The position numbers and the translations under genes are program-made. Shown piece after piece: positions 19,247 to 58,391 of a stretch of 64,000 bases of DNA (position 1 is the stretch's first letter; each line of letters opens with the position of its first letter). The stretch is from the NCBI GenBank assembly GCA_963691795.1, contig OY829373.1:3216810-3280809 (forward strand). Reading direction: 5' to 3'. Origin of the DNA: Roseovarius sp. (GTDB taxonomy: Bacteria > Pseudomonadota > Alphaproteobacteria > Rhodobacterales > Rhodobacteraceae). The notes below the pieces were generated by a model. The model had not been told where the DNA came from and made no database searches. It saw only the letters and a list, made by a program, of their open reading frames with translations.

Positions 19247-22200
19247 TTAGCTACACCCGCTTGTCGCGCCGCAAGTGTTGCACTTCATGCAGGTGCCGTT
19301 GCGGACCAGCGTGTAGTTACCGCAATCGCCGCATGCTTCACCTTCGTAGCCTTGCATCTTGGCCTTATCCGCCGCCGACATTCCCATGCTCACCAAGGGC
19401 GCCGCTGGGGCTGCTGCGGCCGAGGCCGCTGCCACACCACCACCGCTGGCCGTTTCCGGCACCAGTGTCTGCAACGCGCCAATCGGATCACTTGCCGTAT
19501 TCAGCGCCGTGGCACCAACTGACTGGCCGCCATTCAGAACCACAAGTTCCTGCGGCAAACGTTTGCGGAGATAACCGGTGGAACTGATCTGCTTAAGCAC
19601 TTCAAGCGATTTGTTAGCCGCGTCCTCACTCATCTCAGAGATGTTGGAGACGCCCTCTTCCTCGCCGCGGCCCAGATCATCAAAGCTGGTGCCTTCCGGC
19701 TTCACATGGGCCAAATCAGTCCGGTCGAGATAGCTAACCGCCAGCTCGCGGAAGATGTAGTCAAGGATCGACGTCGCATTACGGATCGAGTCGTTTCCCT
19801 GCACCATGCCTGCCGGCTCGAACTTGGTGAAGGTGAAGGCATCCACGAACTCCTCAAGCGGCACACCGTATTGCAGACCCACAGAGACCGCGATTGCGAA
19901 GTTGTTCATCATCGCCCGGAAACCTGCACCTTCCTTGTGCATGTCGATGAAAATCTCACCAAGCGAGCCATCACTGTACTCGCCAGTCCGCAGATAGACC
20001 TTGTGGCCCCCCACCATGGCCTTCTGGGTATACCCCTTCCGGCGATCGGGCATCTTTTCGCGATGCGTTCTGATGATCTCCTTGACGACCACCTTCTCCA
20101 CAATCTTCTCAGCCAGCACTTGCGCCTTTTCTTGCGGGGTGCCAGTTTCAAGAACCTCTGCCGCATCCTCGTCGTCCTCGACAAGCGCCGCCGCCAGCGG
20201 TTGGCTCAGCTTAGAGCCGTCACGATAAAGCGCGTTGGCTTTCACACCCAGTGACCAGCTCTTCTCATACGCCTTCTGGCAGTCCTCGATGGTGGCGTCG
20301 TTGGGCATGTTGATCGTCTTTGAGATCGCGCCTGAGATGAAGCTTTGCGCTGCGGCCATCATAGTGATGTGGCTATCAACATTGAGGAACCGTTTGCCCT
20401 TCTTACCGCAGGGGTTGGCGCAATCGAAGACCTTGTAGTGCTCTTCCGACAAGTGCGGCGCGCCCTCGAGCGTCATTGTCCCGCAGACATGATCATTTGC
20501 CGCGTCGATATCGGCTTTGGAGTAGCCAAGATGCGACAGCATGTCGAAGGTCGGATCATTCAGTTTTGCGGCTGGGATACCAAGCACGCCGGTGCAGAAC
20601 TCCTCGCCCAATGTCCACTGGTTGAAGACAAAGCGGATGTCGAAGGCAGAGCCCACGGCGTTATCCACCTTCTCAAGTTCTGCCGGGCCGAAGCCGTGAC
20701 CGGCAAGCGACGTGTGGTTGATCCCCGGTGCGTTGCCTATGGTGCCATGGCCAACGGCGTAACTCACGATTTCTTCGATCTGGGCAGAGCCGTAGCCAAG
20801 GGTCTCAAGCGCCGCGGGAACGGAGCGGTTTATGATCTTGAAGTAGCCACCACCGGCTAGCTTCTTGAACTTTACCAAAGCAAAGTCAGGCTCAATCCCG
20901 GTCGTGTCGCAATCCATCACAAGGCCGATCGTACCTGTGGGTGCAATCACCGTGGCCTGAGCGTTGCGGTAGCCGTTCTTTTCACCCAGCTTCAGAGCCT
21001 CGTCCCAGCTGGCCATGGACAGCTCAATCAGGCGGCTGTCGGGGCAGTTCTTATGGTCCAGCGGCACTGGCGCCGTGGCCAGAAACTCATAGCCTTCTGT
21101 CGCGCCATACGCCGCGTTGCGATGGTTGCGGATGACCCGCAGCATGTGATCCTTGTTCTTAGCATAGGCCGGGAAGGCCCCCAGCTCACCAGCGATCTCG
21201 GCCGAAGTGGCATAGGCCACGCCGGTCATGATTGCCGTCAAGGCAGCACACATCGCGCGGCCCTCGTCGCTGTCATAGCCATAACCCATGTTCATCAGCA
21301 GGCCGCCAATATTGGCATAACCCAGACCAAGCGTGCGCGTGTCGTATGAGTTCTGAGCAATCTCTTTGGACGGGAACTGTGCCATCAGAACTGAAATTTC
21401 CAGCGTCAAAGTCCAGAGGCGGGTGGCGTGGACATAATCCTCGGCCGCGAATGCTCCGTCTTTGTAGAAAGTCAGCAGATTCATCGACGCCAGGTTACAG
21501 GCAGTATCGTCGAGGAACATGTACTCTGAACATGGATTTGACCCACGGATCTCACCCTCTTCCGGGCATGTATGCCAAGAATTGATCGTGTCGTGGAATT
21601 GGATACCCGGATCCGCACAGGCCCAAGCGGCATGACCCACATCTTCCCACAGGTCACGAGCCTTGATGGTCTTGGCCACTTTCCCGTCTGTCCGGTTGAT
21701 CAGCGCCCAGTCTTCATCGTTTTTGACAGCGTTCAGGAAAGCATCTGTCACACGGATCGAGTTGTTCGAGTTCTGGCCCGACACAGACGCATACGCTTCG
21801 CTGTCCCAATCCGTGTCGTAGGTTGGGAATTCAATACTGTCGTACCCCTGACGCGCATAATCCAACACACGTTTAATGTATGTTTCAGGGATTTGTACGG
21901 TCTTTGCACCACGGATAGCGGTTTTCAGCTGTGCATTTTTAGCCGGATCAACGGCATCTTCACTGCTGCCATCCCATGCGCGGATCGCGTCGAAAATATC
22001 ATTCAGCTTCGCCTCGTGCATCTTGGAACCTGCAACGATAGACGCAACCTTTTGCTCTTCTTTGACCTTCCAATTGATGAATTCCTCAATGTCGGGGTGG
22101 TCGGCGTCACAAATGACCATTTTGGCCGCGCGCCGCGTGGTACCACCAGATTTGATGGCACCCGCCGCCCGATCCCCGATTTTGAGGAACCCCATTAGAC

Positions 22201-22936
22201 CGCTGGACTTGCCGCCGCCGGACAGAGGCTCCCCATCGGCACGCAGGGAGGAGAAGTTCGTGCCGGTTCCCGAGCCGTATTTGAACAGTCGGGCTTCACG
22301 CACCCACAAATCCATGATCCCGCCATCGCCTACAAGGTCGTCAGCGACGGACTGGATGAAACAAGCATGGGGTTGCGGATGCTCATAGGCGCTGCTCGAT
22401 TTAGTCAGATCGCCTGTCTCGAAATTCACGTAATAGTGGCCCTGGCTGGGGCCATCGATGCCATAGGCCCAATGCAGGCCGGTGTTAAACCATTGCGGGC
22501 TGTTCGGGGCTGCCATCTGGCGCGCCAACATGCACCGCATTTCGTCGAAGTAGGCTCGGGCGTCGTCCTCGGCAGAGAAATATCCACCTTTCCAACCCCA
22601 ATAGGCCCACGCACCTGCCAAACGGTCGAATACCTGTTTAGTCGAAGTCTCACCCGTTTTTTCAGTCTTGTCACTGACCGGCACAGAGCGCCAAAGGAAT
22701 TCCGGCACGCCAGGTTCTTTAACCTTTTTGAGTTTCACCGGAACGCCGGCCTTACGGAAATATTTCTGCGCGATCACATCGCTAGCCACCTGGCTCCAAT
22801 TTGCAGGAACTTCGACATCGTCGAGTTTGAACACGATCGTGCCGTCCGGGTTGCGAATCTCCGAACTCGTTTTAACAAAATCCAACTCTGCGTATGCGTC
22901 TTGGCCTGCCTTGGTAAATTTTCTTTCAATTTTCAT
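19247..22936 (-). CDS. nrdJ: class II (adenosylcobalamin-dependent) ribonucleotide reductase
   Basis: 1229 aa, RNR active-site region SNPCSEY, and a C-terminal Cys cluster [28 protein letters not shown] typical of long alphaproteobacterial NrdJ. Confidence 0.93.
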
Positions 22937-40684: not shown

Positions 40685-40702
40685 ATCCACAGTTTATCCA
40701 CA
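40685..40702 (+). promoter_or_regulatory. tandem ATCCACA motifs (ACATCCACA / TTATCCACA) 11 bp apart, upstream of lexA
   Basis: gaacATCCACAGtttATCCACACct read directly. The second motif is a perfect TTATCCACA DnaA box. The spacing is the same as at 1040-1059. Confidence 0.35.
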
Positions 40703-40771: not shown

Positions 40772-41473
40772 ATGCTCACGAGAAAGCAACTCGATCTGCT
40801 GGAATTCATCCACAAACGCGTGCAGCGCGACGGTGTGCCGCCCAGCTTTGACGAAATGAAGGACGCGCTGGACCTGCGGTCTAAATCGGGCATTCACAGG
40901 CTGATCACGGCTCTCGAAGAACGTGGCTTCATCAGGCGCCTGGCACATCGGGCGCGCGCGCTCGAGATTGTGAAGCTGCCCGAAAGCCTCGGTGGGGATG
41001 CTACGGCCGGCTTCGTGCCGCGCGTGATTGAAGGTTCAAAGCCTGAGCCTATTCCCGCGCCTTCTGCAGCGCAACCCGTGGAAGCTACGGTGTTCGACAT
41101 TCCCATGATGGGTCGCATCGCGGCTGGTGTACCGATTGAAGCCATTGCAGATGGTAGCCGCAATGTGGCCGTACCGGGAGACATGATCAGCGGACGGGCA
41201 GGACATTATGCTCTTGAGGTAAAAGGCGATTCCATGATCGGGGCCGGCATCAATGACGGCGATGTGGTGGTAATCCGCGAGACGGACGTGGCCGACAATG
41301 GCGATATCGTTGTGGCTCTTGTGGAAGACCAGGAAGCCACCCTGAAGAAATTCTACCGCAACGGCACTGCGATTGCGCTCGAAGCCGCCAATCCGGCCTA
41401 CGAAACCCGTGTCCTGCCCGAAGACAAAGTGCGCGTGCAGGGCCGCCTTGTGGGCCTAATACGGACCTACTAA
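40772..41473 (+). CDS. lexA: LexA repressor
   Basis: N-terminal winged-helix [12 protein letters not shown], cleavage region RIAAGVP, catalytic KGDSM and ATLKKF. Confidence 0.95.
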
Positions 41474-46643: not shown

Positions 46644-47081
46644 TTGACGCTTCAGGACAGTTTCATGCCCGATGCACCCACCCTGCGCCGCCCAAGACCG
46701 CCCCGCCTGACACGGCACACCGCGCCTTCGCAAGGGCTGGGCCCGCCAGGCTTCCTGATCCATGCTGCGCATGTCATCCCAATGAACCCTGACCCGGTGA
46801 TAAATCCACCTGATCCACTGGAACAGGCCGTCGCGTCAGGAAAAATCTGGGAAGAAGGCCACACCCCTGTTGAGATCGACCGCTTCGATGCACGCGAAGA
46901 TGTCCTTTCGCTTGTTCTTGGCAGATCACAGCAGCCCCCTGTGTTCACCTTACGCAAGACGTGCCATGACAGTTGCGTTCATGTGCTTGCAAATGGTCAG
47001 ACGCTGGCTCGCATCCACGACATCCCCTCGGGTATCTCCCTATCCGATATCCGGATCCTGAACCTGAAATCCGCGCCATAG
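46644..47081 (+). CDS. hypothetical protein
   Basis: An ORF with moderate coding appearance, possibly starting at an internal Met (MNPDPV). No family is recognised. Confidence 0.35.
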   Translation: MTLQDSFMPDAPTLRRPRPPRLTRHTAPSQGLGPPGFLIHAAHVIPMNPDPVINPPDPLEQAVASGKIWEEGHTPVEIDRFDAREDVLSLVLGRSQQPPVFTLRKTCHDSCVHVLANGQTLARIHDIPSGISLSDIRILNLKSAP

Positions 47082-47199: not shown

Positions 47200-47979
47200 T
47201 CAGCGTCCTTCGAATTCGGCCTTGCGCTTATCCAAAAACGCCACGACACCTTCCTTGAAATCCCGCGTCCGACCGCATTTGCCCTGCAGCCGCGCCTCTA
47301 AATCCAGCTGGCCATCGAGGCCATGCTCCCACGTCCCGCGGATTGCGCGCTTGATGTTAGCATAGGCCGCCGTTGGCCCGCTGGCCAAGTGCGCGGCCCG
47401 GGCACGCCAATGGGTGTCGAACGCCTCGTCCGCCACAGCCTCCCAGATCATGCCCCAGGCATCGGCCTGTTTTGCGCTGATCGGCTCGGCAAAAAGGGAT
47501 GCACCCATGGCTTTGGCGGCACCCATCTGGCGCGGCATCCAAAACGTCCCTCCCGCATCCGGGATCAGGCCAATACGGGCGAAGGCCTGCAAGAAATAGG
47601 CGCTCTCAGACGCGATCACCACATCCGCCGCCAACGCAAGATTCGCCCCTGCCCCAGCCGCCGCGCCGTTCACGGCCGCGATTGTTGGCACCGGGCTGTC
47701 CGATATGGCCTTGAGCATTGGCACATATTCATCCCGCAGGACCCGCTCCAGATCAATCTTGGTCGCCAGACCGCCATCGCTAAGGTCCTGACCTGCGCAA
47801 AATGCCTTGCCCGCGCCCGTCAACACCATAACCCGTGCATGCCGGGGTGCAAAACGGGCTGCATCAATCACCTCGGCCCGCATCTCAGCACTCAGCGCGT
47901 TCATACGGTCTGGCCGGTTCAGGCGCAGCACTGCGATGTCGTTTTCGACCTCCAATTCGATACTCTGGTAGTCTTTCAT
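47200..47979 (-). CDS. enoyl-CoA hydratase/isomerase family protein
   Basis: Crotonase-fold sequence (VMVLTGAGKAFCAGQDL...AAVNGAAAGAGANLALAAD). Confidence 0.88.
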   Translation of the reverse strand: MKDYQSIELEVENDIAVLRLNRPDRMNALSAEMRAEVIDAARFAPRHARVMVLTGAGKAFCAGQDLSDGGLATKIDLERVLRDEYVPMLKAISDSPVPTIAAVNGAAAGAGANLALAADVVIASESAYFLQAFARIGLIPDAGGTFWMPRQMGAAKAMGASLFAEPISAKQADAWGMIWEAVADEAFDTHWRARAAHLASGPTAAYANIKRAIRGTWEHGLDGQLDLEARLQGKCGRTRDFKEGVVAFLDKRKAEFEGR

Positions 47980-48057
47980 GTCGCGCCTCGCTTGCTGATC
48001 GCCATTGTCCTGCTTGTCCTACACCCGTTCGCCCGACGTTGGAACGAGTATGGCATG

Positions 48058-48510
48058 TCAGTCCTTCATAATTTCCTCAAGCCGCGCCCGTTCCTGATCC
48101 GAGAGCTCTGCCGCGCCCGCATCAATGTCAGAGGCGCGCCGCCGCACGAACGCAAGACCCAGCCCTAACCCAAGCACCAGCATCGCGGGCCCAGCCAGCC
48201 AAAGCACCAGGTTGCTGCCCGAGGTCCGGGGTTTGAGCAGTACATATTCCCCAAACCGCGCCACGACATAGTCGATCACTGCCGCGTCACTGTCACCGGC
48301 CACCAACCTTTCGCGCACCAGCAGGCGAAGATCACGGGCAAGCGGCGCGTTCGATTCATCGATGCTCTCATTGCGGCACACGAGACAGCGCAACCCGGCC
48401 GAAAGATTTCGCGCACGCTCCTCAAGCATGGGATCATCTAGCACTTCATCGGGCTGTACCGCAAAGACCGGTGCGGCCAGAAAACACAAGATAAGGACCA
48501 GCTGCTTCAT
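48058..48510 (-). CDS. ccmH: cytochrome c-type biogenesis protein CcmH
   Basis: Signal peptide plus LRCLVCRNESIDESNA (CxxC) and a C-terminal TM. Confidence 0.9.
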   Translation of the reverse strand: MKQLVLILCFLAAPVFAVQPDEVLDDPMLEERARNLSAGLRCLVCRNESIDESNAPLARDLRLLVRERLVAGDSDAAVIDYVVARFGEYVLLKPRTSGSNLVLWLAGPAMLVLGLGLGLAFVRRRASDIDAGAAELSDQERARLEEIMKD

Positions 48511-51882: not shown

Positions 51883-52218
51883 ATGGATTTACCGCCCGTA
51901 GTGACCGAACGTGCCTTTGCCCGACTGGCCGAGATCGGCGCCGACCGTGAAGGTCAGGCGCTGCGCGTGGCCGTAGAGGGGGGCGGATGTTCAGGGTTTC
52001 AGTATGAAATCAAGCTCGACACCCCAGCGGATGATGATCTTGTGTTGGAAGGCAAGGGGGAAGGTCTGGGCCAGAAGGTTGTGGTTGACGCGATCTCGCT
52101 TCCCTTTCTCAGCGGCGCAACAATCGACTTCACCGAAGAACTGATCGGCGCAAGGTTCACCATCAACAACCCCAATGCGACCAGTTCCTGTGGCTGCGGC
52201 ACATCTTTCTCGATGTAA
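51883..52218 (+). CDS. erpA: iron-sulfur cluster insertion protein ErpA/IscA family
   Basis: GGGCSGFQY and C-terminal SCGCGTSF. ATG 51883 follows GAGG. Confidence 0.9.
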   Translation: MDLPPVVTERAFARLAEIGADREGQALRVAVEGGGCSGFQYEIKLDTPADDDLVLEGKGEGLGQKVVVDAISLPFLSGATIDFTEELIGARFTINNPNATSSCGCGTSFSM

Positions 52219-52311: not shown

Positions 52312-53223
52312 CTATTCGGCAGGAATAGCGGCGGTATTGCGGTTGCGTGCCTCGTCCAGCACCAGCCATGATCCAGCCAAAATGACAATCGCCGCACCGA
52401 CATAGACGCCCGGCTCCGGCACCTCGCCAAAGACAGTAAAACCGATCAGGAGCATCCAAAGAAACTGCAAGTTCATTAAAGGCGTTACGACATAGGCCGG
52501 CAACAGGCGTAACGCGGCCACCAGTACCCAGCGGGCCCCGAACAGCACGACCGCATAGACGATCACCAACCCTAGGTCTGCCACGGACATTGGCGTGAAA
52601 ACAAACGGCAGTGCCGATGCCATAATTATCATCAATGCCAGGTTTGGATAGAACAACTGCGACAGGATATTCGCGTCCCTGACACCGATGTAGCGTGACG
52701 CCAGCATAGACACCGTACCAAGCATAACCGCTGCCATGGCCAGACCATGCCCCAGTGAGACTGAACTTAAACCGGTAGGCAAAAGGCACAGCACACCCAC
52801 CGTCCCGAACGCCAATGCCAACCAGACCTGCGGGCGTACATGTTCGCCCAGAATCGGACCAGAGAGCAGCGCCGACACAAGCGGGATCATCGCGATGAAC
52901 ACGAATACCTCGGCAAAGGGAAGCAGACGGAACGCGTAGAAAAAAGCCGCCGTGGCTGCAACAGTGGCCAGCACCCGCACCGTCATAGCCCCTGGACAGG
53001 CTGTGCGCATCCCCTGCCATCGCCCCTCACGGCGATTGGCAATAAGGCTTAGCAGCGCCACGACTCCCCCTGATATCGCATAAAGTTGGGGTGCCGCGTG
53101 GCTTGCGGAAAACAGCTTGGTGATCGCATCGGCTGAGGAAATCAACAGCGTGTAAAGCGCCGTCAGCCCAACGCCGGTCAAGCCAAGGGTGCGCAGGGCG
53201 TGGCGGTCAAACTTGCCGATCAT
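52312..53223 (-). CDS. DMT-superfamily (EamA-like) transporter, third gene of the FTSSM-repeat cassette
   Basis: About 10 hydrophobic segments in two EamA-like halves. Its ATG overlaps the stop of the 376-aa gene (ATATGATC) and is preceded by GGGAG. Confidence 0.85.
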   Translation of the reverse strand: MIGKFDRHALRTLGLTGVGLTALYTLLISSADAITKLFSASHAAPQLYAISGGVVALLSLIANRREGRWQGMRTACPGAMTVRVLATVAATAAFFYAFRLLPFAEVFVFIAMIPLVSALLSGPILGEHVRPQVWLALAFGTVGVLCLLPTGLSSVSLGHGLAMAAVMLGTVSMLASRYIGVRDANILSQLFYPNLALMIIMASALPFVFTPMSVADLGLVIVYAVVLFGARWVLVAALRLLPAYVVTPLMNLQFLWMLLIGFTVFGEVPEPGVYVGAAIVILAGSWLVLDEARNRNTAAIPAE

Positions 53224-54350
53224 ATCATATCTCCCGGCTGCACAGCGCGTGAGAAGCCACGGAAGAACGCCTCAAAATCCACCGCACCCTCGGCCGCCTC
53301 CAGCACACTGCGGGCGTCATCCGACATAGCATCGCCTACGTCATCACGCAGCTCTGCCCAGTTATCACTGCGCCGATCACCCAGCCTGTAGATGCTGTCC
53401 GACAACTCCCGTAGCGGTCCCGCCGGCGCTTGTGGGGCTGAAAAGATTACTGAACCTTCCGGCATGTCCTGCCCGAACCCCCCTGCTCCAGATACTTCCA
53501 TGGACCAGTTGAGCATCAGCCAAGGGTGATAGTCATCCTGCCGCGCCGGGCCGCTGCCCACGGAGATCACGAACCGGCGGACCTGGTCACGCAGCCAGTT
53601 TTCCCAGATGGGCGGCGGTTCGTGACCTGCGAAACGCAAGGCGATGCAGATTTCGGAGAGCAGGTCGATATTGAGTTCCAGGAAAGCCAGCGTGCCAGCA
53701 TAGAAGAGGCTGTTCAGCGTGTCTTGCTCTACCCCCGGGTCAGTGCGACCGTATTCGGAAAGATAAAAGAGGATATGGGTCAGTTCATAGGCGGCCTTCT
53801 TGTTGGGCAGCGCAAAGGTGTCGGAGCGGCTGGTAAAGGTACGCAACCGATCCTCCAAGCCCGTATCCCCGGGCAGCGGATCAACCCCGCGCCGCAGGCA
53901 TAGTCGGCGCGCCTCGGCCCGCTGCAAATCTGACAATTCTGCCCCTATAAGCCCCGTGTGGGCCACCCAGTGGGTGAGCCGCTCACCCTTGACGCCCGGC
54001 ATGCCAAGATCCTCAAGGTCCAGCGAGAGCGCGAGGAAAAACCGGTAGTATTGTGGGAAAAATCCGATCCGTGCTTCCAGATCGTCGTAAAAAACGTCGT
54101 ATACGCTTAGGCCATAGTCATCCGGCATGGCCCCTGTAGCCTCAAACACGTTTAATATTTCGGCATTTTCCTTGAGCCAAAACACATCATCGCGGCCGCG
54201 CCGTGTCTCGGCAAAGCGCTGCATGATAGCGCTTTGCCGGGACGCTTTGGTGCGTTGGCGGAACGGAGTGTTGAGGTGGACGAGAACGCCTTGCGCGCTC
54301 GCCTCGCCTGTCGCGCTATTTTCGTTCCGCCAAAGCATCCCGTGGCTCAC
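53220..54350 (-). CDS. 376-aa protein of unknown family, candidate maturase for the FTSSM-repeat peptide
   Basis: Long ORF with high third-position GC. The GTG start overlaps the stop of the repeat peptide (ATGTGAGC). There is no TM or signal peptide, no Walker A, only two Cys (so no CxxxCxxC), and possible metal-ligand motifs HWVAH, ELTH and DDYH. Confidence 0.8.
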   Translation of the reverse strand: MSHGMLWRNENSATGEASAQGVLVHLNTPFRQRTKASRQSAIMQRFAETRRGRDDVFWLKENAEILNVFEATGAMPDDYGLSVYDVFYDDLEARIGFFPQYYRFFLALSLDLEDLGMPGVKGERLTHWVAHTGLIGAELSDLQRAEARRLCLRRGVDPLPGDTGLEDRLRTFTSRSDTFALPNKKAAYELTHILFYLSEYGRTDPGVEQDTLNSLFYAGTLAFLELNIDLLSEICIALRFAGHEPPPIWENWLRDQVRRFVISVGSGPARQDDYHPWLMLNWSMEVSGAGGFGQDMPEGSVIFSAPQAPAGPLRELSDSIYRLGDRRSDNWAELRDDVGDAMSDDARSVLEAAEGAVDFEAFFRGFSRAVQPGDMI

Positions 54351-54769
54351 ATGCTTGATGTGAACATGTGGCAGCCATCGCCTTCTACCGCAGTAGCAGT
54401 CGTGGCCGGACCCATGGACGAGGTAAACGCCTCGACCGCGTCACCGTCGCGGGTCGACGAGGCCGTGACAGGGCCCATGGACGACGTAAAAAGTTCCACC
54501 GCATCACCCGCAGATGCATCGGACGTAGCCACCGGTGACATGGACGAGGTGAAAAGGCCTGTGACCTCACCCGTCGTGATGTCGCCCGCCGTTACAGGGC
54601 CCATGGACGACGTGAAAAGCTCGGTCGCTTCACCCGTAAGGCCATCACAAAACAGGGTGGGTGCCATGGACGAGGTGAACGCGCCAACCTCGGCGCCATC
54701 GTGCAGGCTGGCCTCGACTTGCGGTGTAGAGTTTTGAATAACTTCCAGTGTTTTGAGTTGTGCAGACAT
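54347..54769 (-). CDS. 140-aa repeat peptide: six 21-aa units each ending in FTSSM (candidate multi-core precursor)
   Basis: ATG 54769 lies 7 nt after GGAG. FTSSM occurs at residues 31-35, 52-56, 73-77, 94-98, 115-119 and 136-140 (the C-terminus). The motif is encoded by differing synonymous codons. There is no signal peptide. Confidence 0.8.
   Translation of the reverse strand: MSAQLKTLEVIQNSTPQVEASLHDGAEVGAFTSSMAPTLFCDGLTGEATELFTSSMGPVTAGDITTGEVTGLFTSSMSPVATSDASAGDAVELFTSSMGPVTASSTRDGDAVEAFTSSMGPATTATAVEGDGCHMFTSSM
54350..54727 (-). repeat. six tandem 63-bp coding repeats
   Basis: The + strand core CATGGACGA(G/C)GT(G/A)AA recurs at 54413, 54476, 54539, 54602 and 54665, with a diverged sixth copy CATGCTTGATGTGAA at 54350. 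The period is exactly 63 nt. Confidence 0.9.
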
Positions 54770-54858
54770 CAGTCTTCTCCGTTAGCAGCCCCCAGTTGGG
54801 CGCTATCGACGGTTACAGCTTTAAGGCGATCTGACAACTAACTTTTCTCGTTTAAGAA

Positions 54859-54957
54859 TTTTCCACAGGGTCAGAGTCGAACCTGTGTCATTTCAATTTT
54901 TTGAATTCAAATTGAGAAATCTCTGCTGCACAGTGCGAAAAAAATTTTATCCACAGG
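54859..54957. promoter_or_regulatory. AT-rich control region motifs: TTTTCCACAGG, inverted CCTGTG, TTTGAATTCAAA palindrome, TTATCCACAGG
   Basis: Read directly: 54859-54869 ttttccacagg, 54882-54887 cctgtg, 54900-54911 tttgaattcaaa, 54947-54957 ttatccacagg. Confidence 0.4.
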
Positions 54958-55175
54958 TCTGGAAATAAAGAGATTTCCCGCAAAAAGAGCAAAATTAGGA
55001 ACGAATCAATCAATGCGAAAGTCAAAATCGCGTCTCTTATCACTCCTCCCTTCGTGGGGCGACAGCGTCTCCCGCGGCTGGCCCTTGCCCTCCTGTCCGG
55101 TCCGGGCGATAGATGAGAGGCGCGCATCCGCCAAACCAAGCGCCTGACCACGCTCAAGACCAAAGGGGATCCATA

Positions 55176-56021: not shown

Positions 56022-57047
56022 CTACCCCTCTAACGCCGCAATCAGACGCTGCTGGAAATACGCGACACCTTGCTCGTGGCGCGGGGATAGTGGACCGGGC
56101 CGGTACCCGCCACTTTCATAGTTTTTCTGCGTCTCCAGACAGACCTCGAAATCCTCACGGATGACAGCGAGATTGTCGGCTATCGTCTTTTCTCGCGCAG
56201 GCGCGGCTGCAACAGAAATGTCTGCGAAATAAAAGTTGTAGATCAGCTCTGTCCGGCGATGATCAATCGGATTGATGCGGGAGGTATTCATCCCGCCATT
56301 GAACAGCGATAGCGTCCAGTTGGGCCACATCCACAGCCATTTGCCTCGATAGAACAGCCCGTTCTTAGGAGGTGCCGACATGCGCACAAGGCCGTCCTGT
56401 GCCACGGTCTCGAATTGATCAAATTCGATGGCTGCGTGAAACTCGGGGTGGATGCCCGGGATGTGGTAGCCTTCCACGAAATTGTCCGTGTAGATTTTCC
56501 AGTTGGCATCAAAAACCAGCCGCTCCTCGCGCACCCATTGAAAGCTTTCGATCGGTTCATCCTCAAGCTCGGCTATCGTGTCGGCCAACTGGTCCTGTAG
56601 GCTGCACTGCGGATCAATCGCTACGAACAAAAGCCCCCGCCAGACCTCGAACGCGACCGTGTCGAGCGCCCAGTCCGCCTTCTGGAAATCCACGTCATCG
56701 CCCCACCACGGCACGTTAAGCAGCGATCCATCCTCCCCCCACACCCATTGGTGATAGGGGCACCGGATCGTGCTGCACCGTCCCGCCCCTTCGGGCAAAA
56801 GTCGCGCGCCCCGGTGTCGGCAGACATTGCGAAAGGCCCGCAGCCCATCCTTGGCACGCACGACAAAGACCTTCTGGCCGGCAATCTCGGTTGCCATGTA
56901 ATCACCGCGTTCGGCCAGGCGGGAGGCCGGGCCGATCAGCTGCCAGCTTTGCGCGAAGACGTGATGGCGGTCAGAGGCGTGAACATCGGCACTGGTATAG
57001 TGATGCGGGGCAAGATTCTGCATGGCGGGCCTTTTGTATGACAGCAT
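56022..57047 (-). CDS. Rieske (2Fe-2S) non-heme-iron oxygenase alpha subunit
   Basis: Rieske motif CRHRGARLL...CPYHQWVW. A C-terminal catalytic domain is present and no beta subunit is adjacent. An alternative start is at 57023. Confidence 0.85.
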   Translation of the reverse strand: MLSYKRPAMQNLAPHHYTSADVHASDRHHVFAQSWQLIGPASRLAERGDYMATEIAGQKVFVVRAKDGLRAFRNVCRHRGARLLPEGAGRCSTIRCPYHQWVWGEDGSLLNVPWWGDDVDFQKADWALDTVAFEVWRGLLFVAIDPQCSLQDQLADTIAELEDEPIESFQWVREERLVFDANWKIYTDNFVEGYHIPGIHPEFHAAIEFDQFETVAQDGLVRMSAPPKNGLFYRGKWLWMWPNWTLSLFNGGMNTSRINPIDHRRTELIYNFYFADISVAAAPAREKTIADNLAVIREDFEVCLETQKNYESGGYRPGPLSPRHEQGVAYFQQRLIAALEG

Positions 57048-57485
57048 ATGCGGACCGTATCATGTTACTACCGAGTGCTCTGCCATGGCAATCGGTGTGA
57101 AACCTCGCCAAAGGGCCCTTAAGCGCCAGAACGACACGCCACCTCTGTGGACTGACGCAGCACTGACAGGTTAGGTCAGGCTGCGCCAGATGGCTATCAA
57201 ACTGGTCAAAGACGGTCGGAAAGAGAAAATTCAACTTTCTATCAGGATGTTACCCTGATCCGGCCAGCCTGTACTGGCACAGTTCTACGGCAAAGCACTG
57301 GTCCGTTCGGGTGCAATCGCCAAATGCCCAAACCCGCCCCACACACAGGTCCGCGCATGGGGGACCGCAGCCAAATGTTTTACGCACGCCCCCAGCTGCC
57401 ATAAGCTGACTACAAAGCGTCCAGCCCCCGCCCCTGCCCATCGGTCAGACCCGCGCGGCGCGTATCAAGAGGGAGGAACTCAATA

Positions 57486-58391
57486 TTGTCCATCGATGCC
57501 ATTCGCACCCCTGACGACTGTTTTCTCAACCTGCCAAACTTCGACTGGCAGCCCCGGTACACGGATGACCTGCCCGGATATGAAGGGCTGCGCATGGCAA
57601 GGATCGACGAGGGCCCACAGGAGGCAGAGCAGGTGTTCCTCTGCCTACATGGGCAGCCTTCGTGGGGATTTCTTTACCGGCACATGATCCCGGTCTTCCT
57701 AGGGACGGGGGCGCGCGTGGTTGTGCCTGATCTTTTCGGTTTCGGCCGGTCAGACAAGCCGACGCGGGATAGTGACTATAGCTTCACCTTCCATCGTCAC
57801 AGCCTGATGGCGCTGATCAAACATCTTGACCTGCGCTGCATCACCCTTGTTGTTCAGGATTGGGGCGGGTTGCTGGGCCTGACCATACCGCCTGACATGC
57901 CCAAGCGGTTCGAGCGGCTTTTGGTCATGAACACGGTTCTGGGCCTGGGCGGCGGTAGCAGTGACGGTTTCGAGGCTTGGAAGACGTTCCACCGGACCCA
58001 TCCTGATTATGACATGGCGACCCTATTCCAGACCTACGTACCCGGCATGCCGGACAAGGTGGCCCACGCCTATTCTGCCCCCTTCCCCGATACCCGATAC
58101 CGCGCGGGCGCGCGCACCTTTCCTTCGCTTGTGATGACAGAGCCCCATATGGAAGGCGTCGAGGTTTCGCGCAGGGCGGCCGCTTGGTGGAAAGAGGAAT
58201 GGACTGGCGACAGCTTCATGGCAGTTGGAGAGGCAGACAAGCTGATCCCGCCGCGCCTGATGGTACGGATGCAAGACATCCTGGGCATCACCCGCCCACC
58301 CCTGATGATCCCTGATGCAGGGCACTTTGTTCAGGAAAGCCATGGTGCAGAGGTCGCGCGCGCGGCGCTCACTGCTTGGCGAACTGGTTGA
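57486..58391 (+). CDS. haloalkane dehalogenase-like alpha/beta hydrolase
   Basis: HGQPSW oxyanion region and nucleophile motif VVQDWGG, as in DhlA-type dehalogenases. TTG start after GGGAGGA. Confidence 0.82.
   Translation: MSIDAIRTPDDCFLNLPNFDWQPRYTDDLPGYEGLRMARIDEGPQEAEQVFLCLHGQPSWGFLYRHMIPVFLGTGARVVVPDLFGFGRSDKPTRDSDYSFTFHRHSLMALIKHLDLRCITLVVQDWGGLLGLTIPPDMPKRFERLLVMNTVLGLGGGSSDGFEAWKTFHRTHPDYDMATLFQTYVPGMPDKVAHAYSAPFPDTRYRAGARTFPSLVMTEPHMEGVEVSRRAAAWWKEEWTGDSFMAVGEADKLIPPRLMVRMQDILGITRPPLMIPDAGHFVQESHGAEVARAALTAWRTG

Follow-up and report, generated by a model that had tools for sequence, protein, structure and literature searches.

The window analysed here is a stretch of 64,000 nucleotides from Roseovarius sp. 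(Rhodobacteraceae; assembly GCA_963691795.1, contig OY829373.1, positions 3,216,810 to 3,280,809), and the element in question is a group of three tightly packed genes on its minus strand, named A, B and C in reading order. Gene A encodes a protein in which the pentapeptide FTSSM occurs in six in-frame copies with a 21-amino-acid period, gene B encodes a protein of the Pfam family DUF6902, and gene C encodes a drug/metabolite transporter (DMT) of the EamA type. The trio probably constitutes an operon similar to those for peptides that are made by the ribosome and modified after translation (RiPPs), making a small, exported, peptide-derived product. An initial annotation of the same DNA had described a compact operon of a precursor, an enzyme and an exporter; its coordinates for the three open reading frames (ORFs) are confirmed, and its reading is supported in the parts that can be tested, with modification and export as inferred steps. 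The FTSSM repeat, which is the key feature of gene A, was absent from that description. The genes and their junctions are as follows.

54347..54769, minus strand: gene A, an ORF with a translation of 140 amino acids, candidate multi-core precursor
53220..54350, minus strand: gene B, 376 amino acids from a GTG at 54350 or 372 amino acids from an ATG at 54338; DUF6902
52312..53223, minus strand: gene C, 303 amino acids, DMT/EamA-family inner-membrane protein, putative exporter
54347..54350, minus strand: A/B junction, GTGA, the stop of A over a possible GTG start of B
53220..53223, minus strand: B/C junction, ATGA, the stop of B over the ATG start of C; putative translational coupling

Organization of the locus

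Overlaps of 4 nt had been proposed for both junctions. The ATGA between B and C holds and is kept widely in relatives; the GTGA between A and B is present in the sequence, but forms an overlap only with the GTG start of B. In the public call of an identical protein (P0001, 372 amino acids) the start is the ATG at 54338, which leaves a gap of 8 nt. A and B are tightly packed under either choice of the B start.

The outer boundaries are also as first described. An erpA-like gene on the plus strand (Fe-S_biosyn) ends at 52218 and converges with C across a gap of 93 nt. On the other side, A is divergent from an xthA-like gene (Exo_endo_phos), and the AT-rich region between them, initially put at about 400 bp, measures 343–397 nt, depending on the xthA start. 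The G+C fraction of this region is 0.49 overall and 0.38 in its core (54800–55040), compared with 0.59 in the operon. The operon value equals that of the window and of the host, and the flanking xthA, erpA and dGTPase genes are the same in 75–76 of the 80 related loci described below, in line with the earlier view that the operon is not an obviously recent import.

Separate promoters or terminators between the genes, which would have spoken against a single unit, were looked for by a consensus scan, and none was found at the A/B or B/C junction. Terminator-like matches inside the coding sequence number 5 against 4.1 expected, which is the chance level. Comparison of the operon and its leader region with Rfam gave nothing credible. 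Searches of A and B with PADLOC and PHROGs returned no match, and the operon is not a phage or defence element.

The putative repeat precursor

The product of gene A begins with a leader of ~24 residues, followed by six modules of ~21 residues of the form G-[DE]-x-x-x-x-F-T-S-S-M, the last FTSSM being the C-terminus of the protein. A one-genome-per-species scan finds relatives of B in at least 577 genomes, and the best 80 loci, nearly all from Rhodobacterales (Roseovarius, Shimia, Phaeobacter, Jhaorihella, Primorskyibacter, Pelagivirga), were compared. The parts of A and its ribosome-binding site are located as follows.

54774..54780, minus strand: Shine-Dalgarno-like GGAGAAG, 4 nt upstream of the A ATG, with its GGAG core ~7 nt away
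54698..54769, minus strand: leader, residues 1–24, MSAQLK...SLHD, compared across 78 loci
54665..54679, minus strand: core 1, FTSSM, residues 31–35
54602..54616, minus strand: core 2, FTSSM, residues 52–56
54539..54553, minus strand: core 3, FTSSM, residues 73–77
54476..54490, minus strand: core 4, FTSSM, residues 94–98
54413..54427, minus strand: core 5, FTSSM, residues 115–119
54350..54364, minus strand: core 6, FTSSM, residues 136–140, C-terminal, directly before the TGA stop at 54347–54349

A repeat ORF stands immediately upstream of B in 78 of the 80 loci, as A does in the window, so that the precursor adjoins its putative modifying enzyme. Common to the leaders of these 78 loci are M-[ST]-A-x-[RL]-K at the N-terminus and S-L-H-D-G just ahead of module 1. 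The protein thus divides into a conserved leader and, ahead of each invariant core, a G-[DE]-x4 flank, with variable linkers between the modules. Alignment of the upstream regions of relatives shows a conserved GGGAGA block.

The initial reading of the first gene as precursor-like is supported. Its product shows no signal peptide and no hydrophobic or transmembrane (TM) segment by hydropathy, and it has no match in Pfam or NCBIfam. No DNA tandem repeat is detected by Tandem Repeats Finder, and the repeat exists at the peptide level only. The six cores of the window use differing synonymous codons (TTC/TTT, ACC/ACG/ACA, TCG/TCA and TCC/AGC), and in 514 motif instances the amino acids are held as the codons vary, the serine at position 4 being encoded by both TCN and AGY. 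The lack of a DNA repeat together with this synonymous variation indicates conservation at the peptide level and, judging from the codons, the multi-copy core is under purifying selection as a peptide.

An antisense ORF at 54234–54737 (plus strand, 167 amino acids) is also repetitive. It was rejected, the codon variation sitting on third positions of the minus frame; further speaking for the minus frame are its end exactly at the motif, a Shine-Dalgarno sequence and conservation upstream of B. The exact 140-residue protein A is not present in a collection of 15 billion proteins, which holds B and C from the same contig, and the public annotation of this genome therefore either omits the gene or places its ends differently. 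The precursor ORF is called in other genomes.

Core types in related genomes

The precursors of relatives contain 2–15 cores, spaced mostly by 19–21 residues and occasionally by as few as 8, and a core forms the end of the protein in 72 of the 78 loci. The logo of 397 repeats reads [ASG]-P-x7-8-G-[DE]-x-[VT]-[EGQ]-[MLA]-F-[TS]-S-[SGC]-[LMSAI], with G at position −6 in 100%, D or E at −5 in 96% and S at +2 in 97%. The F at 100% was required by the search pattern, and core copies with M or V replacing F exist. Core positions 2–5 are identical in every copy within one genome, and eleven core types are seen between genomes:

FTSSL: 35 genomes
FTSSM: 25 genomes
FTTSL: 6 genomes
FSSGS: 4 genomes
FTSSI and FTSGL: 2 genomes each
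FSSGA, FSSCS, FSSGL, FTSGS and FTSGA: 1 genome each

A switch between FTSSM and FTSSL is found between genomes whose DUF6902 proteins are 86% identical. The rule of one genome, one core points to the pentapeptide as the functional unit.

Two further features of the arrays were noted. In one group of relatives (loci L075, L078, L050 and L068) the linkers within arrays of 10–15 or more cores are nearly identical, a sign of recent tandem expansion; those of the six modules in the window have diverged. Several precursors also hold 8-residue mini-repeats such as FTSGLVQMFTSGL, which are without the G-[DE] flank.

The form of the core resembles that of the Fxs (FxSxx-COOH) triceptides, made from TIGR04268 precursors with FxsB. 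Read in this way, the F-x-S cores would be cross-linked to three-residue cyclophanes by a radical S-adenosylmethionine (SAM)/SPASM enzyme encoded elsewhere in the genome, and the DUF6902 protein would be an accessory tailoring enzyme. The proposal draws on the fit of every core to F-x-S-x-x and on the C-terminal position of a core in the window and in the same 72 loci, the pattern that gives TIGR04268 its name, "FxSxx-COOH cyclophane-containing RiPP peptide". Short aromatic-led motifs are repeated in one precursor in both systems, and repeated aromatic-x-x motifs are typical of triceptide precursors. However, the TIGR04268 model reaches 6.8 bits (E 8.6, cut-off 28) on the best relative and gives no match at E<=1 to the A of the window, and the core copies with M or V in place of F do not suit it. 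For six loci with tabulated genes, the +/-4 kb covered contain no radical SAM gene, and none was seen among the ORFs scanned in the window (~36.5–63 kb); the neighbours in the 80 related loci are homologues of xthA, erpA and dGTPase. The system also differs from Fxs in its enzyme family, its alphaproteobacterial host and its DMT exporter. The operon is not an Fxs member, and cross-linking of its cores by a distant radical SAM enzyme is highly improbable.

Conservation of the trio

The DMT gene lies downstream of B in 78 of the 80 loci, and with the precursor ORF present in equally many, the comparison of gene order in relatives, which had been suggested as a check, comes out in favour of the trio. 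The flanks are conserved too (xthA in 76, erpA in 75 and the dGTPase gene in 75 of the 80 loci), which makes the locus an old, vertically inherited part of the chromosome. The operon occupies a single fixed place on the chromosome, between xthA and erpA, in 76–78 of the 80 best-matching loci. The stop-start overlap of B and C is possible in 74 of the 78 DMT-bearing loci, being 4 nt long in 70 (ATGA in 44, GTGA in 23, TTGA in 3) and 1 nt long in 4.

The spacer between A and B measures 40–67 nt in most relatives. An attenuator or terminator in these spacers was considered and rejected, as folding z-scores are near 0 and no T-run is found. The spacers (L009–L080, for instance L039, L042 and L050) hold a conserved GAACGG(G/A)-like word, often then a short GC hairpin without a T-run.

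The full trio is also present in Pseudooceanicola algae. In Donghicola sp. (L086, GCA_041224595.1, 3672–5005) a DUF6902 gene occupies the same slot between xthA and erpA, and its product is ~20–24% identical to other members. This locus lacks the precursor, the DMT gene and the DnaA box described below, and it looks like a decaying copy. The loss of precursor and exporter together, accompanied by divergence of the DUF6902 protein, argues that the three genes work together.

These data also bear on the possibility that the three genes are unrelated neighbours kept by vertical inheritance, A being spurious or non-functional and C a general metabolite exporter. The flanks are as conserved as the trio, and the exact protein A is missing from the collection that holds B and C, both of which speak for this possibility. 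Such an origin would leave unexplained the third-position variation around invariant amino acids in 514 motif instances, the conserved Shine-Dalgarno sequence and upstream blocks, the calling of the precursor ORF in other genomes, the conserved stop-start overlap of B and C, and the co-loss of precursor and exporter. It is strongly disfavoured and hardly credible.

The DUF6902 protein

B matches DUF6902 (PF21843) with 478 bits and E 2.1e-143. It also matches DUF6895 (PF21836) with 66.2 bits against a gathering score of 23.8 (E 4e-18), the match covering B residues 86–247 and 165 of the 289 profile positions. The 478-bit score to one family and the partial match to the other place B in a sister family of DUF6895; the title of Shi et al. 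(ACS Catal. 2026, cited as reference 371 in PMC13352647) gives DUF6895 as a family of lasso-peptide epimerases. DUF6902 is a small family: at 50% identity it makes up 203 clusters in a set of 1.84 billion representatives. B has no match in NCBIfam, no NCBIfam model (release 20) describes the system, and no description of DUF6902, PF21843, the core pentapeptides or Roseobacter multi-core RiPPs was found in the searchable literature.

The AlphaFold model of B, built with 22 homologues, has a mean predicted local distance difference test score (pLDDT) of 87 and a predicted template modelling score (pTM) of 0.85. It is almost entirely helical, with the N-terminal 28 residues disordered. Foldseek returns no structural match below E 0.1 in the PDB or BFVD, with template modelling scores <=0.28, and a profile search of PDB sequences gives a chance match only. 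The non-significant Foldseek neighbours are all helical-repeat peptide binders (ARM, HEAT, TPR).

Across members that are ~20–30% identical, thirteen positions are near-invariant: K60, E64, R103, S140, D141, Y188, T191, H192, D229, E233, Y274, H275 and W282. Polar residues conserved in this way would fit acid/base or metal chemistry.

Three more specific assignments of B were rejected. The alpha-ketoglutarate-dependent HExxH peptide hydroxylases (TIGR04267/IPR026337) include a member whose structural analysis was published in 2024 (PMC12636437); B has YELTH at residues 188–192, and the NCBIfam and Foldseek searches above return no such match. Identity as a heme-oxygenase-like di-iron protein (Haem_oxygenas_2) has no support from Pfam or Foldseek, and the name "iron-containing redox enzyme" was seen once, for the entry of the Roseovarius pelagicus homologue. 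A LanC-like nature is likewise unsupported, the search of PDB and BFVD structures giving nothing below E 0.1. As for a lasso context, no cyclase, leader peptidase or RiPP recognition element is found in the window neighbourhood or in related loci.

The helical-repeat neighbours suggest a different role for B. Protein A could be a disordered protein of short linear motifs, to which B binds in the role of scaffold, adaptor or regulator, perhaps in connection with DnaA or the cell cycle; the DMT protein would then be co-expressed and chemically unrelated. That no catalytic motif can be assigned to B, that DnaA boxes lie upstream and that the DMT gene is dispensable in Phaeobacter inhibens would all suit such a role. 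It sits poorly with the match of B to a family reported as an enzyme by the title of a paper, and with the His, Asp, Glu, Lys and Tyr residues that stay invariant even in very distant members. The exactly C-terminal core and the copy number of 2–15 fit product dosage better than a scaffold, and both the enzyme/transporter overlap kept in 74 of 78 loci and the common loss of precursor and DMT gene in Donghicola tie the genes to one another. A pure binding function is considered unlikely, and modification of the cores by B is the reading preferred here.

The transporter

The terminal gene had been assigned to the EamA/DMT family, and this is confirmed. Pfam EamA matches C in two stretches (4.8e-11), and hydropathy predicts ~9–10 TM segments. 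Its architecture of two EamA repeats and about ten TM segments is that of the DMT/EamA exporters YddG, RhtA and EamA; however, its scores are far below equivalog cut-offs, the weak matches to amino-acid exporter models being 25 bits for TIGR00950 (cut-off 230) and 18.7 bits for YddG (cut-off 300). No equivalog-level match in NCBIfam gives C a substrate, and the PDB search found no sequence relative. Metabolites are the typical cargo of DMT proteins.

This last property would also suit a peptide-derived cofactor or metabolite that is kept in the cell or periplasm, similar to pyrroloquinoline quinone (PQQ) or mycofactocin. In such a case A would be a sacrificial scaffold, B would build a small molecule from F-[TS]-S, and the DMT protein, with its weak matches to amino-acid exporters, would move the product or a substrate for the cell's own use. 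A vertically inherited position among housekeeping genes (erpA, dGTPase, xthA, ccmF, dksA), seen in 75 or more of the 80 loci, fits this better than it fits an accessory antibiotic, and strict conservation in the core is limited to F, [TS] and S. However, core positions 4–5 are uniform within a genome and differ between genomes, which F-T-S alone would not require. The operon contains no oxidoreductase, radical SAM or other cofactor-building enzyme, and B has no detectable redox fold. A retained cofactor is accordingly a minor possibility beside an exported, peptide-derived product.

The upstream region and DnaA boxes

The AT-rich region between A and xthA contains two 9-mers that resemble DnaA boxes, the consensus used being TTATCCACA, and a conserved word further upstream.

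54859..54867, minus strand: proximal DnaA-box-like 9-mer, TGTGGAAAA on the operon strand (TTTTCCACA in the window), with one mismatch to TGTGGATAA; ~95 nt upstream of the A ATG
54947..54955, minus strand: distal DnaA-box 9-mer, exact TGTGGATAA on the operon strand (TTATCCACA in the window); ~185 nt before the A ATG
55002..55009, minus strand: conserved word TTGATTCG, containing a GANTC (CcrM-type) site, GATTC, seen in the alignment

The two boxes of the window are 88 nt apart. Among 76 related intergenic regions, exact TGTGGATAA is present on the operon strand in 61, compared with 0.13 expected from shuffles, and two boxes are present in 41, mostly 88–90 nt apart. In the alignment, the boxes stand out as islands of conservation, and their distance to the Shine-Dalgarno sequence of A is fixed. 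No box is present in the Donghicola remnant, where xthA is retained, which ties the boxes to the operon and not to xthA. GATTCG, the core of TTGATTCG, is present in 56 of the 76 loci. From the consensus sequence only, control of the operon by DnaA may be proposed. Reading the AT-rich region as a replication origin (oriC) was rejected, as the GC skew is negative across the window with no switch at 55 kb.

Other sequence elements were seen in the same region: a palindrome, TTTGAATTCAAA, lies between the two boxes (54900–54911), and a GTGCAAGCGT-like conserved block lies in the leader (54809–54819). Elsewhere in the window, a second exact TTATCCACA occurs at 40694–40702 in the moeA–lexA intergenic region, upstream of a lexA-like gene (40772–41473), and a box with one mismatch at 40806–40814, 112 nt downstream of the former, lies just inside the lexA-like ORF.

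Proposed pathway

In the preferred reading of the trio as a RiPP-like operon, transcription would start from the conserved promoter region with its two DnaA-box 9-mers. A would be translated in the cytoplasm as a multi-core precursor with a short leader and six modules, each made of a recognition stretch, G-[DE]-x-[VT]-[EGQ]-[MLA], and the core F-T-S-S-M. B would bind the G-[DE]-x4 flank of each module and modify the adjacent core. The most economical guess for the reaction would be acid/base chemistry on the core, such as L-to-D epimerization, which is suggested by the DUF6895 match together with the invariant K60, D141, Y188, H192, D229, E233, Y274 and H275. Epimerization or another acid/base reaction is put forward tentatively, and is itself rather doubtful. 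As the operon encodes no protease, the cores may be freed by general peptidases or by B itself, and the DMT protein, translationally coupled to B, would export the product.

Several observations weigh against this pathway. Modification of the cores, their product and its export are inferred. The epimerase lead comes from a paper title and a partial Pfam match (165 of 289 positions), and it is held with low confidence. B has no recognizable catalytic fold or cofactor site and no PDB relative, and it could therefore be a binding protein and not an enzyme. There is no protease or immunity gene in the operon. RiPP clusters seldom lie, as this locus does, in a vertically inherited position among housekeeping genes and, as the flanks are conserved as well as the trio, conserved order alone is weak evidence of coupling.

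Two further contexts of DUF6902 count on the same side. Phaeobacter inhibens (L088, CP010756.1, 3693–5795) has a 78-residue precursor with three FSSGS cores and a 420-residue DUF6902 protein with insertions, and is without the DMT gene; a gene for a DUF421 membrane protein is found there on the opposite strand. The retention of A and B without C indicates that export by this DMT transporter is not obligatory; in favour of the pathway, it also marks precursor and enzyme as the core, obligate pair. Distant DUF6902 proteins in Robiginitomaculum-like contigs (L082, L084, L085, L087) have neither FxSxx repeats nor a DMT gene nearby. They lie next to a regulator-like protein of ~540 residues, which has a TM segment and whose N-terminus is winged-helix-like, followed by one of ~88 residues that carries a signal peptide and the conserved motifs YRGDF and LYSGxGS. 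This different, conserved context suggests that the family is not tied to one substrate type. A metagenome scan for distant DUF6902 contexts yielded only two loci.

Comparison with known systems

The DUF6895 lasso epimerase system, as named in the title of Shi et al. (2026), is the closest point of reference for B, which passes the DUF6895 gathering score and, like that epimerase, adjoins a ribosomal peptide gene. However, B itself belongs to DUF6902, genes for a lasso cyclase or leader peptidase are absent nearby, and the putative substrate is a multi-core linear repeat.

Multi-core precursors are known from other RiPPs, among them microviridin (PMC5934393), fungal Kex2-processed repeat peptides or dikaritins (PMC7329392) and plant burpitides (PMC12186524), as well as cyanobactins. 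The precursor described here is similar in having several short cores per polypeptide, a conserved flank for each, variable linkers and a copy number that differs between species. By contrast, the accompanying enzyme is of none of the ATP-grasp, protease, UstYa or BURP types, and a processing protease is not encoded. Moreover, each genome has a single core type in all copies, and the locus belongs to the vertically inherited core genome.

Microcin C, pantocin A and PQQ are made from a short ribosomal peptide by very few enzymes, with a small-molecule-type transporter, a logic shared by the present operon; their precursors are single-core. PQQ is in addition a housekeeping-type peptide-derived product. 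The enzymes of these pathways are unrelated to those of the present operon, in which the precursor is multi-core. The system appears best filed as a kind of RiPP with an uncharacterized maturase family.

Other features of the window

Some neighbouring genes fall outside the operon. A Rieske ring-hydroxylating oxygenase gene and an alpha/beta-hydrolase gene (56022–58391) lie between xthA and the FAD-monooxygenase and dksA genes. In Donghicola, P. inhibens and one further locus (L086, L088 and L089) xthA adjoins the FAD-monooxygenase gene directly, so the Rieske/hydrolase pair looks like a local insertion. Two ORFs without a Pfam match, 46644–47081 (145 amino acids) and 47323–48168 (281 amino acids), are found between a citrate synthase gene and ccmF, and an ORF of 1229 amino acids is found further upstream at 19247–22936.

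Significance

It is possible, at less than even chances, that the locus represents a new RiPP class in the core genome of roseobacters, in which DUF6902 would turn a multi-copy, genome-typed pentapeptide into a small molecule, exported by the DMT protein, that serves as a lineage-specific signal or shared physiological factor, its production being tied to DnaA, and with it to replication or the cell cycle, by the two conserved boxes. With only three genes and a predictable product mass, the system is directly testable. If the reading is true, the Pfam family DUF6902 would gain a function, and RiPP enzymology would gain a maturase without a solved structural relative. For a pathway of this type, the possible link to DnaA would be an uncommon kind of regulation. 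Most RiPP clusters are accessory islands, which this locus is not, and its product may therefore be a physiological signal or factor and not an antibiotic. Roseobacters, which rank among the marine heterotrophs that are most abundant and best studied, would then have a family-wide peptide product whose core differs by lineage in the manner of signalling pherotypes.

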